Shown piece after piece: positions 1-8,604 of a stretch of DNA of 64,000 nucleotides. The stretch's first letter is position 1; every line of letters starts with the position of its first letter. A program made the position numbers and the translations under genes. Source of the stretch: a virus; the IMG/VR virus record IMGVR_UViG_3300032282_003280, positions 27,275 through 91,274 of that record; one strand, 5' to 3'. The notes under the pieces were generated by a model that was not told the origin of the DNA, made no database searches, and saw nothing but the letters and a program-made list of their open reading frames with translations.

Positions 1-554
1 GTTATACCGGCAAGTTCTGCCATTTGACCTATTACATCAAACTCAGGGAAACCTTCTTTATACTCATCTAATACTTGAGTCTCTTTTCTCTTCAGATAAT
101 CTAAGTTTAAGTAATTTCCACCCTTATGTCTTGAGCCTGTGTGTGATAAATAACAAATATCATCATTCATATACTTCTCAAAATCAAGGGGTTTAGAGAA
201 TACTATATCAGCATCATGATAAAATATTACATCGTTTGAAAGATCTGGAAACAAAGTAAAGTACTTAGCTAACATCCATGGTCTAAGTAAAGGGTTATAA
301 TCAATAATATCAATCATTGATGTGCACTCTCCATCCACATCTCTAAAATAATAAAACTTTGTTTCCGGATACTTCTTTTGTAATTGTCTCCAGGAGTCAG
401 GTACAGGCTGTGTTGATTGTTTCTCAGATACAAATACAAGAACTGTAGCTTTTTCTGAGTACCCCCACTTTCTAAAGTTTGTTAGTTGTACATCTGTTTG
501 CCATATAAAATAGGGTTGCAGAGGACAAGCCTGTATAAATTTTAGATTTTGCAT
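1..554 (-). CDS. Glycosyltransferase (GT-A fold) resembling plant peptidyl-Ser galactosyltransferase / Hyp-arabinosyltransferase (GT96/GT95-like); partial, runs off the window edge; not in the ORF track
   Basis: Hand translation from ATG 554 is open to position 1: MQNLKFIQACPLQPYFIWQTDVQLTNFRKWG...DYNPLLRPWMLAKYF...VIFYHDADIVFSKPLDF... It has a DxD motif plus YFxWQ and YxPxxRP motifs. Confidence 0.7.
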   Translation of the reverse strand, partial: MQNLKFIQACPLQPYFIWQTDVQLTNFRKWGYSEKATVLVFVSEKQSTQPVPDSWRQLQKKYPETKFYYFRDVDGECTSMIDIIDYNPLLRPWMLAKYFTLFPDLSNDVIFYHDADIVFSKPLDFEKYMNDDICYLSHTGSRHKGGNYLNLDYLKRKETQVLDEYKEGFPEFDVIGQMAELAGI

Positions 555-585
555 TATGTAGTTAGTTGGTTAGTTTTAAATATAT

Positions 586-1653
586 TTAGTAAGCATTTAC
601 TCTACACTCTATAATAGCATTTCCTCCAGGAGAAGGTTTAACAACACTATACGTAGAGGTATTAGTAGCAAGTGATGGTAAATCATATGCTCCTAATAAA
701 GTAAAACTTAAACCATTATTATTAGAGTAATACAAGTATACACTTTCCGCATACATTGCTGTATTAGTAACTGTAATCTTTATCTTGTTGCCTTCAAAAA
801 ATTCTCCTGAATAGAGAGTTTGAGTATTTGGAGGAACAAGTAATGATGTAGTAGGATTAAAGTAATTATTAATAATTGGTGAAGCCGGAGGAGGTACGTC
901 TTCTACATTCCATGCAGTATTTGTAATTCCTATAGTTTTACTTCCCTGAGATACTACTATATAATCCAATGTAATTGGAGCAACTGTAGTTGTTGTAGTA
1001 GTTGTTGAACTAGTAGTAGTGGTTGTCGTTGTACTAGTAGTTGTTGTGGTAGTAGATGTTGTAGTTGTTGTAGTAGATGGAGCATCTAATATATATACAG
1101 TAAAATCTCCACCTGGTGTACACTCAAATGTTGGAAGAGTAGTGGTTGTTGAAGTAGTACTACTTGTTGTAGTAGTGGTTGAGGTAGTACTGGTTGTAGA
1201 TACATATGGAGGAGTAGGACCTATATTACAAGTACTAAACTCAGTTACCCCATAATATATATCAGAATTCATCCCATATACAACCTCTACATCCATAGTA
1301 CCCGGTTGTACATACTCACCATATATACATAAATTATCAGTAACCCCACAACAGATATCCCTCTCAACTGAGGTACCACTCTGTATATAACCAGAATCAA
1401 CAACTATACCTGTATCAGCATCCCTTAGTTCCCAATAAATATTATCATAAGAACTATCATTTGATAGTGTAAATACAAATGGATTACATGTTGTAGTAGT
1501 TGTTGTAGAACTTGATGTAGTTGTACTAGTGGTGCTACTTGTGGTAAAAGTAGTAGTTGTTGTAGTCCTATCCTGATTACATAGAGGAGAGGCTACAAAC
1601 ATAGCTGTATTACAACCACATGGTATACAATTACAATTATTACAACAACTCAT
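586..1653 (-). CDS. Mucin-like protein with three poly-Thr/Ser tracts, a Cys-rich N-terminus and beta-rich domains; probable virion surface protein
   Basis: 355 aa; starts MSCCNNCNCIPCGC; tracts at about 1489-1566, 1138-1203 and 984-1077; lies among glycosyltransferase and fibre genes. Confidence 0.75.
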   Translation of the reverse strand: MSCCNNCNCIPCGCNTAMFVASPLCNQDRTTTTTTFTTSSTTSTTTSSSTTTTTTCNPFVFTLSNDSSYDNIYWELRDADTGIVVDSGYIQSGTSVERDICCGVTDNLCIYGEYVQPGTMDVEVVYGMNSDIYYGVTEFSTCNIGPTPPYVSTTSTTSTTTTTSSTTSTTTTLPTFECTPGGDFTVYILDAPSTTTTTTSTTTTTTSTTTTTTTSSTTTTTTTVAPITLDYIVVSQGSKTIGITNTAWNVEDVPPPASPIINNYFNPTTSLLVPPNTQTLYSGEFFEGNKIKITVTNTAMYAESVYLYYSNNNGLSFTLLGAYDLPSLATNTSTYSVVKPSPGGNAIIECRVNAY

Positions 1654-1667
1654 TATTATCTTTTATT

Positions 1668-2051
1668 TTAACCTGTACAAGTTGAACAAGGTACATTACC
1701 TAAAACAGTTACTACATGACCTACATCTTCAGGGCCTGTAGTTACATCTATTATTTGCCAGCAGATTGAGAATTGGTTATCTACTATATCTCCTGGAGAA
1801 AGTATATCCGGGCCATCATATCTTATTGTATGATAAACTTCGTCTCCACAAGCAACTACCCTATAATATGTTATTATAGGGGCTGTGGTAGTTGTGGTTG
1901 TAGTTAGACTACAACTATCTGAAACTTCATACGGTATATCTACATATATCCAACCAAGTTTACCGGCTTTAGTCATATCTTGAGTGAACGTACTCCAATA
2001 CTTGAAGCCGTTTACACAGAATACATATCCTCTTTTATGCCGTTTGGTCAT
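1668..2051 (-). CDS. Small protein with a TTTTTTTAP tract and Cys-rich C-domain
   Basis: 127 aa; overlaps the upstream glycosyltransferase stop by 4 nt (translational coupling). Confidence 0.7.
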   Translation of the reverse strand: MTKRHKRGYVFCVNGFKYWSTFTQDMTKAGKLGWIYVDIPYEVSDSCSLTTTTTTTAPIITYYRVVACGDEVYHTIRYDGPDILSPGDIVDNQFSICWQIIDVTTGPEDVGHVVTVLGNVPCSTCTG

Positions 2052-8164: not shown

Positions 8165-8518
8165 TTATGAATATATAAATACAGTATATGTCTGAGAAGT
8201 AGTAAACTCAGTACCACCTTGTAGTACAAATCCACCTCCTGTAAGTAGTTGATATTGCCCTGCTCCAGTACCCTCAGTTAAATAACCGGTACCATTTAAG
8301 TATATCTTAACATTATAACCATCCATTGCAGGATTGCTATATGTTGTGGTATTATTTGCAGGAGTACCCGGATTACCATCACCAATAGTAAATTGTGCTA
8401 TAGGTTGGTAATTCTTAGTAGATGCTATCCTAGCAAGATATCCATTAGATATCCTTATTAATTTTTCTATATCCCGAAGCCATTTAGTTTCTTCGGTAGT
8501 AATAAAGCCGTGAGCCAT
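8165..8518 (-). CDS. Small beta-rich structural protein; first gene of the glyco/fibre unit
   Basis: 117 aa, KIYLNG...YQLLTGGGF; directly after a promoter. Confidence 0.55.
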   Translation of the reverse strand: MAHGFITTEETKWLRDIEKLIRISNGYLARIASTKNYQPIAQFTIGDGNPGTPANNTTTYSNPAMDGYNVKIYLNGTGYLTEGTGAGQYQLLTGGGFVLQGGTEFTTSQTYTVFIYS

Positions 8519-8539
8519 TTTATTATGGGTTAAAGTTTA

Positions 8540-8571
8540 CAAATATATGTTTTTTTATGGATTTTACCTAA
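8540..8571 (-). promoter_or_regulatory. Bacteroidota-type sigma70 promoter for the glyco/fibre unit
   Basis: -7 element TATATTTG (8547-8540), 20-nt spacer, TTAG; the -33 is overlapped by the inverted repeat TTTACCTAA-TT-TTAGGTAAA (8563-8582). Confidence 0.6.
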
Positions 8572-8592
8572 TTTTAGGTAAATTTGTGGGCC

Positions 8593-8604
8593 ATGTTATA
8601 GCAT
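8593..8604. promoter_or_regulatory. Operator-like palindrome ATGYTATARCAT, copy 1
   Basis: CATGTTATAGCAT is identical to 53113-53125 and to the reverse complement of 61169-61181. Confidence 0.6.

Follow-up and report, generated by a model that had tools for sequence, protein, structure and literature searches.

GmaR of Listeria is a GT2-TPR flagellin O-GlcNAc transferase, and SunS is a peptide S-glycosyltransferase. The serine-rich-repeat adhesins of streptococci are modified by GtfA/B together with GT8 enzymes such as GlyE. Among the giant viruses, A64R of PBCV-1 acts on the capsid protein, while L230/R699 of Mimivirus are collagen glycosyltransferases. To our knowledge, glycosylation of virions has been shown experimentally only in a few mycobacteriophages. 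SgtA of Clostridioides difficile is a GT-A plus TPR O-GlcNAc transferase with a collagen-like exosporium substrate, BclA3, in which the Thr of GPT triplets has been proven to accept the sugar (PMC7157674). For the mycobacteriophages Che8, Corndog and Myrna, Freeman et al. 2023 are cited as reporting virion glycosylation, in which the phages' own glycosyltransferases modify C-terminal extensions of the capsid and tail-tube subunits (PMC12619734, PMC12363180, PMC11256854).

Here, we describe a crAss-like phage that probably encodes, as judged from its genes and those of its relatives, a self-contained system for the O-glycosylation of its own structural proteins, consisting of two enzyme-acceptor pairs. 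The window is the whole stretch of 64,000 nucleotides that was analysed, taken from a 91-kb record that represents about 78% of the genome. A tblastn search with the portal protein returned 135 records, nearly all crAss-like (cr60_1, Bacteroides, Flavobacterium and Cellulophaga phages), with around 25% identity to crAss-like phages over 96% of its length. The record also contains giant virion-protein ORFs of 3970, 1726 and 1690 aa, and the best isolated relative of the major capsid protein is that of Leptolyngbya phage Lbo-JY46 (27%). The portal and the giant proteins support an assignment to the Crassvirales in the broad sense, and on the portal evidence the label 'crAss-like' given in the first-pass annotation is upheld. 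Three glycosyltransferase genes, together with Thr-rich collagen and poly-Thr genes, close the late structural gene string; all are on the minus strand, with gaps of 0-31 bp or overlaps of 1-4 bp. Every ORF that had been assigned to this tightly packed unit was recovered. The features are as follows:

1..554, minus strand: N-terminal 184 codons of a predicted 352-aa GT8-like GT-A glycosyltransferase (phrog_4417, PHROG 5e-45)
586..1653, minus strand: 355-aa poly-Thr/Ser protein, candidate acceptor of the 352-aa enzyme (adjacency in homologous loci)
1668..2051, minus strand: 127-aa protein with a seven-threonine linker (ORF and Thr-run scan)
2048..3796, minus strand: GT2-TPR-GT2 glycosyltransferase, candidate collagen Thr O-glycosyltransferase (Pfam GT2, TPR, homologues)
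3809..4087, minus strand: 92-aa protein between the collagen and GT2-TPR-GT2 genes (ORF, no family match in Pfam and PHROG searches)
4100..6895, minus strand: 931-aa collagen-like tail fibre, candidate acceptor of GT2-TPR-GT2 (Pfam Collagen, tail-fibre PHROGs)
6895..7122, minus strand: 75-aa Cys-rich protein (ORF)
7122..7871, minus strand: 249-aa GT2-like GT-A glycosyltransferase (predicted fold, profile match, synteny)
7871..8140, minus strand: 89-aa protein (ORF)
8165..8518, minus strand: 117-aa protein, first gene past the gap (ORF, gene order of relatives)
8540..8582, minus strand: putative promoter signals, a TAtaTTTG -7-box-like motif at 8540-8547 and a hairpin at 8563-8582 (motif scan)
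47245..48324, minus strand: 359-aa head-module protein with a poly-Thr tail, candidate glycosylated virion surface protein (Thr-run scan, homologues)

The gene for the 352-aa enzyme extends 505 bases past the left edge of the window (L001:996-2054, minus strand), and homologues of the 117-aa protein come after the 1690-aa protein in relatives. The 85-bp intergenic gap upstream contains TAtaTTTG, a Bacteroidota-type -7 box, and a perfect hairpin with a 9-bp stem. The proposal that a single promoter heads the unit is not confirmed; sigma-70-like sites are at chance level (40 found versus 35.7 expected) and the TAnnTTTG motif is only mildly enriched (103 versus 76).

The enzyme encoded next to the collagen gene, from which it is separated by one 92-codon ORF, is 579 aa long when read from the ATG at 3787 and 582 aa for the ORF 2048-3796. 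The N-terminal domain of the 582-aa protein matches the Pfam GT2 family PF00535 with E=9.3e-24 (84.7 bits, cut-off 23.3), and the C-terminal residues 395-582, searched alone (188 residues), match the same family above the cut-off (E=2.9e-8, 34.3 bits). Between them, TPR_8 is matched at residues 269-297 (E=2.4e-7), with more TPR matches across residues 225-377, and the GT2-TPR-GT2 architecture read from the sequence at first pass is thus borne out. More than 890 homologues were found; 28 of them share the invariant motifs D42-T-G-S-x-D47 and D121-x-D123-E124, and some homologues have the C-terminal domain swapped for methyltransferase or other transferase domains. The best sequence matches among solved structures (PDB) are GmaR (E=4e-11) and SunS (7e-4). 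GmaR has a similar GT2-TPR architecture and a protein substrate; however, its match is limited to residues 3-56, the GmaR and SunS matches span only about 55 residues of the N-terminus, where nucleotides are bound, and the two enzymes act on unrelated substrates. The collagen fibre, likewise as first described, contains seven stretches matching PF01391 (E=4.6e-53) and has tail-fibre PHROG matches. Of its 125 Gly-X-Y triplets, 75% carry Thr in the Y position and 42% carry Tyr in the X position; the triplets are arranged in seven runs of 6-32 with nine G[PA]GNFT interruptions, forming two (Gly-Tyr/Pro/Ala-Thr)n blocks with central and C-terminal globular domains.

For the 352-aa protein, Pfam and NCBIfam searches gave no match, and neither sequence nor profile searches of the PDB returned anything. 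AlphaFold2 predicts a GT-A fold with a pLDDT of 95.6, which has 247 Foldseek matches at E<=0.001. By VIA, the fold is closest to glycogenin (Z 14.9), LgtC (14.1), Skp1 AgtA (13.8) and GlyE (13.4), with A64R at 10.7 and R699 at 10.2; WbbM is a further VIA/Foldseek neighbour within the Z range of 13-15, and the neighbours include the protein-glycan enzymes glycogenin, Skp1 AgtA, GlyE, UGGT and PBCV-1 A64R. The DxD motif D114xD116 is invariant among the homologues. None of 34 homologues matches a GT8 model, and one of 34 weakly matches HPAT, the hydroxyproline O-arabinosyltransferase model (PF23452, E=0.021). The Atlas hints at a likeness to HPAT or GT60 GlcNAc transferases, with HPAT-, GlcNAc- and O-FucT-bearing clusters near the enzyme (TM 0.64-0.68), but HMM searches lend no support. 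Based on the predicted structure, the protein is a GT8-like GT-A glycosyltransferase of the hitherto unannotated family phrog_4417, in agreement with the third DxD glycosyltransferase postulated at the edge of the window. The 249-aa protein had been called a GT2 enzyme; its match to Pfam GT2 (E=0.022) is below threshold, but it is a GT-A glycosyltransferase by fold (AlphaFold2 pLDDT 92). Foldseek gives 390 PDB matches at E<=0.001, the top matches listed all being GT-A glycosyltransferases (AvpGT, WrtF, TarS and SpsA, 1e-9 to 1e-7), and a profile search finds SpsA at 8e-4. D95xD97D98 is invariant in its homologues, and in related crAss-like contigs its gene lies upstream of the 352-aa gene, often immediately adjacent. 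All three candidate enzymes are glycosyltransferases with an intact DxD motif, and none has a transmembrane segment.

The two poly-Thr proteins reported between these enzymes are also present. The N-terminus of the 355-aa protein is Cys-rich and its small domains are separated by several poly-Thr/Ser tracts, and the C-terminal domain of the 127-aa protein recurs in relatives. A further poly-Thr ORF, of 68 aa, follows immediately downstream of the 352-aa gene, beyond the window. In the entire 91-kb record, Thr runs of at least four residues are found in four ORFs only, the three flanking the 352-aa gene and the 359-aa head-module protein. The gene for the latter is the third after the major capsid protein gene, and its product ends with six threonines followed by Leu-Pro. 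Thr-rich tails end 21 of 25 homologues, and the 352-aa enzyme is likewise encoded in all three homologue-bearing records with a completeness of at least 90%. The 68-aa ORF and the tail of the head-module protein had been missed in the earlier reading.

Co-occurrence was analysed in 80 GT2-TPR-GT2 loci, 80 loci of the 352-aa enzyme and 117 random viral loci. Collagen is present in 74 of the 80 GT2-TPR-GT2 loci and is of the Gly-Tyr-Thr type in 71, whereas a Thr run of at least five residues was found in 5/80 and is not enriched over the random loci (3/117). For the 352-aa enzyme the pattern is reversed, with Gly-Tyr-Thr collagen in 0/80 and a Thr run of at least five residues in 69/80 loci. The random loci contain three collagens, none of the Gly-Tyr-Thr type (Fisher p about 1e-37 to 1e-44 for the enzyme-acceptor co-occurrences). 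After clustering at 70% identity the respective feature is retained in 32/40 GT2-TPR-GT2 clusters and 10/12 clusters of the 352-aa enzyme. Among 101 collagens encoded beside GT2-TPR-GT2, Thr is the commonest Y residue in 100 (70% when pooled), and the pooled X position is Tyr in 38%, Pro in 25% and Ala in 15%. In loci without GT2-TPR-GT2, collagens are of the Gly-Pro/Ile-Gln or Gly-Thr-Ser types, the one exception among those sampled being on a contig that also carries GT2-TPR-GT2. The GT2-TPR core is also encoded divergently beside a Gly-X-Thr collagen gene in three of four sampled plasmids of spore-formers (Bacillus, Priestia), an arrangement that matches the published SgtA-BclA3 pair (PMC7157674).

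The poly-Thr ORFs adjoin the gene for the 352-aa enzyme with gaps of 9-75 bp and are directly adjacent to it in most of the 80 loci. In all ten cultured phages sampled, from six host genera (Lactobacillus, Enterococcus, Lactococcus, Staphylococcus, Clostridium and Chryseobacterium), the homologue follows a capsid, tail-tube or small structural gene whose product has a Thr-rich tail. For instance, the major capsid and major tail proteins of iLp84, R9.1, phiFL1A, phiCTP1, bIL285 and RQ1 have poly-Thr ends and are encoded beside the enzyme gene. Conversely, when 91 viral loci were picked only for a Thr run of at least seven residues, seven carried the 352-aa enzyme, compared with none of the 117 random loci, and in at least six of these seven the enzyme gene abuts the poly-Thr gene. 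Poly-Thr tracts therefore also exist without the enzyme, which is present in only 8% of these loci. Since the 352-aa enzyme loci form only 12 clusters at 70% identity, the association is in part due to shared ancestry, a concern that is eased, though not removed, by the cultured phages of Firmicutes and by the reverse test. Because each enzyme family tracks its own kind of Thr-rich protein across hundreds of phages, the phage probably sugar-coats its own particle. The first-pass annotation had suggested that the phage glycosylates its own Thr-rich proteins with its own enzymes, and had proposed co-occurrence in relatives as a check. The outcome is strongly positive, but the unit splits into separate pairings; a single pathway of 'initiating plus elongating' glycosyltransferases acting on all acceptors does not fit, as the data show two separable enzyme-acceptor pairs instead.

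Most characterised phage GT2 enzymes modify the host envelope, and it is conceivable, but unlikely, that the enzymes described here act during infection on the LPS O-antigen, the capsule or teichoic-acid-like polymers, perhaps so that superinfection is blocked or progeny do not re-adsorb to lysed cells, and that the Thr-rich proteins are ordinary fibres or linkers. PHROG classifies relatives of GT2-TPR-GT2 under 'moron/host takeover' as beta-1,4-glycosyltransferases, and the nearest folds to the 249-aa enzyme are the teichoic-acid/polysaccharide transferases TarS, TarP, RmlT and WrtF and heparosan synthase. However, the three enzymes lack membrane segments, Pfam and PHROG searches of the unit revealed no gene for a flippase, a GtrA/B-like protein or a polymerase, and the glycosyltransferase genes come last in the late structural string. 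Envelope modification also leaves unexplained why each enzyme family tracks a different type of Thr-rich protein and why the 352-aa gene lies between capsid and tail genes in cultured phages.

The specificity of the pairings also bears on a rather improbable alternative, namely that the collagen, poly-Thr and glycosyltransferase genes are cargo that hitch-hikes in a hypervariable host-recognition region, the Thr tracts being unmodified flexible linkers. Hitch-hiking predicts no specificity, yet Gly-Tyr-Thr collagen occurs in 71/80 versus 0/80 loci and the poly-Thr counts are reversed, and the same pairings recur with differing gene orders in unrelated genome types, from 40-kb to 200-kb phages to Firmicutes siphophages and Bacillus plasmids. 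This reading would accommodate the absence of the 352-aa enzyme from 92% of the poly-Thr loci and the high variability, among relatives, of the slot between the 249-aa and 352-aa genes, and tail-fibre regions are known metaviromic islands (PMC10202952). In the closest relative (102 kb) the two small glycosyltransferase genes are adjacent and no Thr run is found within 10 kb, which counts against the poly-Thr pairing. From the gene orders of relatives, the collagen and GT2-TPR-GT2 genes look like a cassette in the variable slot between the other two. Finally, glycosylation of phage DNA at hydroxymethylated bases by one or more of the enzymes, as an evasion of restriction, is very improbable: it is the classic phage GT-A role, is assumed in aquatic actinophage papers (PMC10202952) and could be linked to the dNMP kinase of the replication module, but no hydroxymethylase or thymidylate-synthase-like gene was found in the 91 kb (about 78% of the genome), the glycosyltransferase genes are in the structural and not the replication module, and neither the TPR domain nor the acceptor-specific co-occurrence has a place in it.

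Returning to glycosylation of the phage's own structural proteins, we infer the assignment of enzymes to acceptors, the sugar, the order of the steps and the biological role from sequence, as follows. The reactions would take place in the host cytoplasm and draw on host nucleotide sugars. In the first pair, the TPR domain of the soluble GT2-TPR-GT2 enzyme would grip the unfolded or folded collagen-like fibre, the N-terminal GT2 domain would place the first sugar on the Y-position Thr of Gly-Tyr/Pro/Ala-Thr triplets, much as SgtA modifies BclA3, and the C-terminal GT2 domain would add to or modify this sugar. By analogy, SgtA is also a soluble GT-A enzyme with TPR repeats whose gene adjoins that for a Gly-X-Thr collagen-like protein, and the plasmid-encoded homologues of the window protein in Bacillus and Priestia lie beside such collagens. 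In contrast to that system, the protein is of phage and not of spore origin, the enzyme has an extra C-terminal GT2 domain, and about 40% of the phage triplets have Tyr at X, a feature not observed in the bacterial examples.

In the second pair, the GT8-like 352-aa enzyme would glycosylate poly-Thr tracts, with the clade-conserved 249-aa GT2-like enzyme as a probable participant; the targets would be the three small proteins flanking the 352-aa gene and the poly-Thr C-terminal tail of the head-module protein. The streptococcal adhesin system offers an analogy, in that soluble GT-A (GT8) enzymes O-glycosylate long Ser/Thr-rich tracts in the cytoplasm. The fold of the 352-aa enzyme has GlyE as one of its top matches (Z 13.4), though with an identity of only 10% and without a Pfam GT8 match for the phage protein, and the phage has neither a GtfA/B-type initiating enzyme nor an accessory Sec system. 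Giant viruses are comparable in encoding GT-A enzymes for their own capsid or collagen-like fibres, but infect eukaryotes, and their acceptors are Asn/Ser on capsid or hydroxylysine in collagen and not Thr. The parallel with the mycobacteriophages lies in the C-terminal tails, seen here in the sequence of the head-module protein and also on the capsid and tail-tube proteins of cultured phages with 352-aa-family enzymes. The enzyme differs, being of the phrog_4417 GT8-like family, as do the phages, which are of Bacteroidota type or infect Firmicutes, and the candidate acceptor, which is pure poly-Thr. A tblastn search of the phage collection with the 352-aa enzyme retrieved 77 records, none of them from a Mycobacterium phage. 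The glycans might serve in surface shielding or adhesion; a lure for Sus receptors is a further role put forward in the first-pass annotation.

No paper describing either enzyme-acceptor association was found in our literature search, in agreement with the first-pass view that such a system is undescribed for Crassvirales. If the pairings are true, glycosylated particles would be widespread, among hundreds of aquatic phages and a clade of crAss-like phages and also among cultured phages whose hosts are lactic acid bacteria, enterococci or staphylococci and which serve in dairy research and phage therapy. This would bear on phage stability, adsorption, adhesion to mucus or particles and antibody recognition, and would assign a function both to phrog_4417, a large family without annotation, and to the Thr-rich collagen fibres, which are very common. 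A broader and more tentative idea, which we regard as possible rather than probable, is that tailed phages use portable 'glyco-tags', written in the protein sequence, in two orthogonal codes, Gly-Tyr-Thr collagen read by TPR-bearing GT2 enzymes and poly-Thr tracts, C-terminal or in linkers, read by phrog_4417, the readers being dedicated soluble enzymes. One virion, here crAss-like, could then bear different glycans on its fibres and its head, and the capsid and tail-tube proteins of the Lactobacillus, Enterococcus, Lactococcus and Staphylococcus phages would be glycoproteins. The Tyr next to the candidate acceptor Thr might then belong to the sequon, or might accept a sugar as well. The enzyme-acceptor pairings could be tested directly in cultured phages that are already available.

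The window spans bases 27275-91274 of a linear viral record of 91,274 bp that is about 78% complete, and its minus strand carries nearly all genes, including a structural string that runs from terminase through portal and major capsid protein to giant proteins of 1726, 3970 and 1690 aa and then to the glycosyltransferase unit. In tblastn searches the portal protein matches 135 phage records (identity about 25%, coverage 96%), and since almost all of these are crAss-like (human-gut cr-series phages and phages of Bacteroides, Flavobacterium, Cellulophaga and Azobacteroides among them), 'crAss-like' is a fair label for the phage. 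Unlike the portal matches, the nearest isolated relative of the capsid protein is from a Leptolyngbya phage. The large terminase (1033 aa, 56035-59136, minus strand) matches phrog_6681 most strongly, through residues 494-1013; residues 1 to ~490 have matches to further PHROG families of large terminases, and those at ~80-360 to primase and DnaC-like helicase-loader PHROGs. The 8.6-kb unit gave no megablast match in the phage collection. All ORFs named in the first-pass annotation are present at the following positions:

Crossing the left edge of the window, minus strand: 352-aa enzyme (phrog_4417)
586-1653, minus strand: 355-aa poly-Thr protein
1668-2051, minus strand: 127-aa poly-Thr protein
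2048-3796, minus strand: 582-aa GT2-TPR-GT2 protein
4100-6895, minus strand: 931-aa collagen-like tail fibre
7122-7871, minus strand: 249-aa enzyme

Beyond the left edge, the 352-aa enzyme gene is followed by a 68-aa poly-Thr ORF and ORFs of 76, 232, 181 (ferritin-like), 92 and 80 aa, after which plus-strand replication genes converge on the unit. In this stretch outside the window (L002), the ferritin-like gene closes the structural string (17683-18228, minus strand), and a spore-photoproduct-lyase-like radical SAM protein (15429-16292) and a cREC_REC receiver-like domain protein (12895-13338) are encoded on the plus strand. The sole sizeable gap, 85 bp in length, contains a TAtaTTTG motif that resembles a -7 box, together with a perfect hairpin. 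For the one promoter proposed earlier, consensus scans gave results at or near chance, the one for sigma-70 sites no more than chance. The hairpin, an inverted repeat with a 9-bp stem and a 2-nt loop (8563-8582), separates the 1690-aa gene from the unit, lies immediately upstream of the -7-box-like motif and may be a terminator or operator.

The 582-aa protein has an N-terminal GT2 domain (Pfam, E=9e-24) and TPR matches, and its C-terminal 188 residues alone match GT2 above cut-off (E=2.9e-8); the 931-aa fibre matches Pfam Collagen (5e-53) and tail-fibre PHROGs. The Pfam GT2 match of the 249-aa protein is sub-threshold. For its AlphaFold model, built from 21 homologues (pLDDT 92), Foldseek gives 390 hits among solved chains at E<=0.001, and those listed first are the GT-A glycosyltransferases AvpGT, WrtF, TarS, TarP and SpsA. 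A profile search also matches SpsA (8e-4), and D95xD97D98 is invariant among homologues. For the 352-aa enzyme, the sole family match is phrog_4417, of unknown function, and sequence and profile searches of the PDB gave no matches. Its model (pLDDT 95.6) has a GT-A fold with an invariant D114xD116, and the nearest structures are GT8-type retaining enzymes, namely glycogenin (Z 14.9), LgtC (14.1), WbbM (14.1), Skp1 alpha-galactosyltransferase (13.8), the UGGT catalytic domain (13.4) and GlyE (13.4), an enzyme of the pneumococcal serine-rich-repeat adhesin pathway; PBCV-1 A64R follows at Z 10.7. Pfam searches gave no support for HPAT or GT8 membership.

GT2-TPR-GT2 has more than 890 homologues at ~45-57% identity, mostly on viral and metagenomic contigs, and in many of them methyltransferase or other transferase domains take the place of the C-terminal third. 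The single protein found no related loci; an alignment of 28 homologues was required, and with it 80 viral loci were retrieved on contigs of 5-204 kb. A scan of genome contigs gave ten loci, none in Clostridioides, most of them on short contigs of MAGs that could be of phage origin. The proposed co-occurrence with collagen was borne out: a collagen-like ORF lies within 10 kb in 74 of the 80 viral loci, nearly always in the same orientation and in many cases as the immediate neighbour, versus three such ORFs, none with Tyr at X, in 117 random viral loci (1.0 Mb, drawn by an arbitrary 14-mer). Thr is the commonest Y-position residue in 100 of the 101 collagens beside the enzyme. Pooled, these have Thr at 70% of Y positions, while X is Tyr in 38%, Pro in 25% and Ala in 15%, and the window fibre agrees (Thr 75% at Y, Tyr 42% at X). 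By tblastn, the other proteins of the unit have no homologues in the 80 loci, which indicates an association with a protein class, the Gly-Tyr-Thr collagens, and not with orthologues. The collagen blocks of the window fibre are broken nine times by G-[P/A]-G-N-F-T, which includes an N-x-T sequon; of the 101 collagens, 32 contain similar motifs of the form G[PAS]GN[aromatic/aliphatic]T, with 110 copies in total.

Plasmids of spore formers encode the GT2-TPR core (residues ~7-386, 23-28% identity), and in three of four sampled plasmids it is divergent from an adjoining Gly-X-Thr collagen-like gene. C. difficile has its sgtA and bclA3 genes in this layout, and its SgtA (358 aa, GT-A plus TPR) was shown to attach beta-O-GlcNAc to the Thr residues of GPT repeats (PMC7157674).

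The 352-aa enzyme has more than 500 viral matches, of which the best 80 loci, mostly on contigs up to ~126 kb, were analysed. Runs of at least five Thr occur in 69 of these versus 3 of the 117 random loci, and in most cases the poly-Thr ORFs directly adjoin the enzyme gene, on either side, with gaps of 9-75 bp. Two small-protein families recur beside it, one with a ~45-residue domain, a Cys-Cys end and a poly-Thr tail, of which the 68-aa ORF is a member, and one with a ~35-residue helical domain and a poly-Thr tail. In the former, the Cys-Cys pair immediately before the tail is conserved (L200-L279 loci); several Cys also lie within the first 15 residues of the 355-aa protein and of the 75-aa protein (6895-7122). 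In the reverse direction, 91 viral loci picked solely by a run of at least seven Thr include seven with the enzyme, its gene abutting the poly-Thr gene in at least six, and none of the 117 random loci encodes it.

Acceptor types in viral loci of each enzyme and in random viral loci
GT2-TPR-GT2 loci (n=80): any collagen 74; Gly-Tyr-Thr collagen 71; Thr run of at least 5 in 5
352-aa enzyme loci (n=80): any collagen 29; Gly-Tyr-Thr collagen 0; Thr run of at least 5 in 69
Random viral loci (n=117): any collagen 3; Gly-Tyr-Thr collagen 0; Thr run of at least 5 in 3

Fisher tests for enzyme/acceptor co-occurrence give p ~1e-37 to 1e-44, and after clustering of the enzymes at 70% identity the feature is kept in 32 of 40 GT2-TPR-GT2 clusters and 10 of 12 clusters of the 352-aa enzyme. 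Where collagens accompany the 352-aa enzyme, they belong to other types (Gly-Pro/Ile/Val-Gln or Gly-Thr/Ser-Ser). Across the locus sets of the 249-aa and 352-aa enzymes, Gly-Tyr-Thr collagens occur in a single locus, on the one contig that also bears GT2-TPR-GT2. Besides the record analysed here, a second contig, IMGVR_UViG_3300033066_001857 (L063/L300, 69 kb), has all three enzyme families, with two Gly-Tyr-Thr collagens, several poly-Thr proteins and a different gene order. Six loci with the 352-aa enzyme and without GT2-TPR-GT2 (L206, L221, L229, L251, L261, L287) encode proline-free Gly-Thr/Ser-Ser collagen-like proteins (X, Thr ~57-68%; Y, Ser ~56-78%), which may be further acceptors.

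Full-length homologues of the 352-aa enzyme (22-31% identity) are present in 77 cultured-phage records. In all ten of those sampled, the enzyme gene lies inside the structural module, and adjoining proteins have Thr-rich tails or tracts:

Thr-rich proteins beside the 352-aa enzyme homologue in ten cultured phages
Enterococcus phiFL1A: tail-tube protein and capsid-region protein
Lactobacillus iLp84 and Lacticaseibacillus R9.1: capsid and tail-tube proteins in both
Clostridium phiCTP1: tail-tube-like protein
Lactococcus bIL285: tail-tube protein
Staphylococcus RQ1: tail-tube protein and overlapping poly-Thr ORF
Lactobacillus Bacchae: three small proteins
Chryseobacterium MA9V-3: two poly-Thr proteins, encoded immediately upstream of the enzyme gene
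Enterococcus Planchet: poly-Thr ORF that overlaps the capsid gene at its end
Lactobacillus brevis 521B: Ig-like protein with terminal Thr-Thr-Val-x-Pro repeats

In RQ1 (L318 4232-4934) and Planchet (L315 2742-2885), the poly-Thr ORF is in a different reading frame from the tail-tube or capsid gene whose 3' end it overlaps, which suggests that programmed frameshifting could extend some of the subunits with poly-Thr.

Runs of at least four Thr are confined to four ORFs of the 91-kb record, three of which flank the 352-aa enzyme gene. The remaining one encodes a 359-aa protein (47245-48324), a putative auxiliary capsid protein three genes after the capsid gene, whose C-terminal end of six Thr followed by Leu-Pro is similar to the ends of the phage's other Thr tracts. 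It has no tblastn match in the phage collection. Thr-rich C-terminal tails are present in 21 of its 25 homologues; the tail-less ones are all on fragments 17-28% complete, and the 352-aa enzyme is present in all three homologue-bearing records at least 90% complete and in one 83% complete.

Related crAss-like contigs share a gene order that starts with the 1690-aa protein, one or more 117-aa homologues, variable fibre genes and the 249-aa enzyme, and continues, after anything from zero to several variable genes, with the 352-aa enzyme, a small protein that often has poly-Thr, and the 232-, 92- and 80-aa proteins. The 249-aa and 352-aa enzymes are clade-level core genes. Their genes lie side by side in the nearest relative; in the window they are separated by the 75-aa ORF, the collagen fibre, a 92-aa ORF, GT2-TPR-GT2 and the two poly-Thr proteins, so that the pair of collagen and GT2-TPR-GT2 resembles a cassette that was acquired.

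Phage GT2 enzymes are by default taken to modify host glycans, and this reading agrees with the fold neighbours of the 249-aa enzyme, but it leaves both the acceptor-specific co-occurrence and the structural-module location unexplained, and the unit is without any membrane or flippase component; no membrane-like segment was found in any of the three enzymes. Glycosylation of phage DNA is disfavoured, as no hydroxymethylase was found in the 91 kb (~78%) of the genome. The reading that the genes simply hitch-hike together in a variable region is contradicted by the reciprocal acceptor pattern of the two enzymes and by the return of these pairings in unrelated genome types.

In full-text literature searches, virion glycosylation was found described for mycobacteriophages only and SgtA-BclA3 in bacteria only, and aquatic actinophage papers name a glycosyltransferase and collagen-like proteins without linking them. 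The first-pass annotation had the phage glycosyltransferases O-glycosylate the phage's own Thr-rich proteins. Comparative genomics supports this as a candidate function and refines it into two predicted enzyme-acceptor pairs, by which the phage would O-glycosylate its own Thr-rich proteins: GT2-TPR-GT2 with Gly-Tyr-Thr collagen, and the 352-aa enzyme with poly-Thr proteins.
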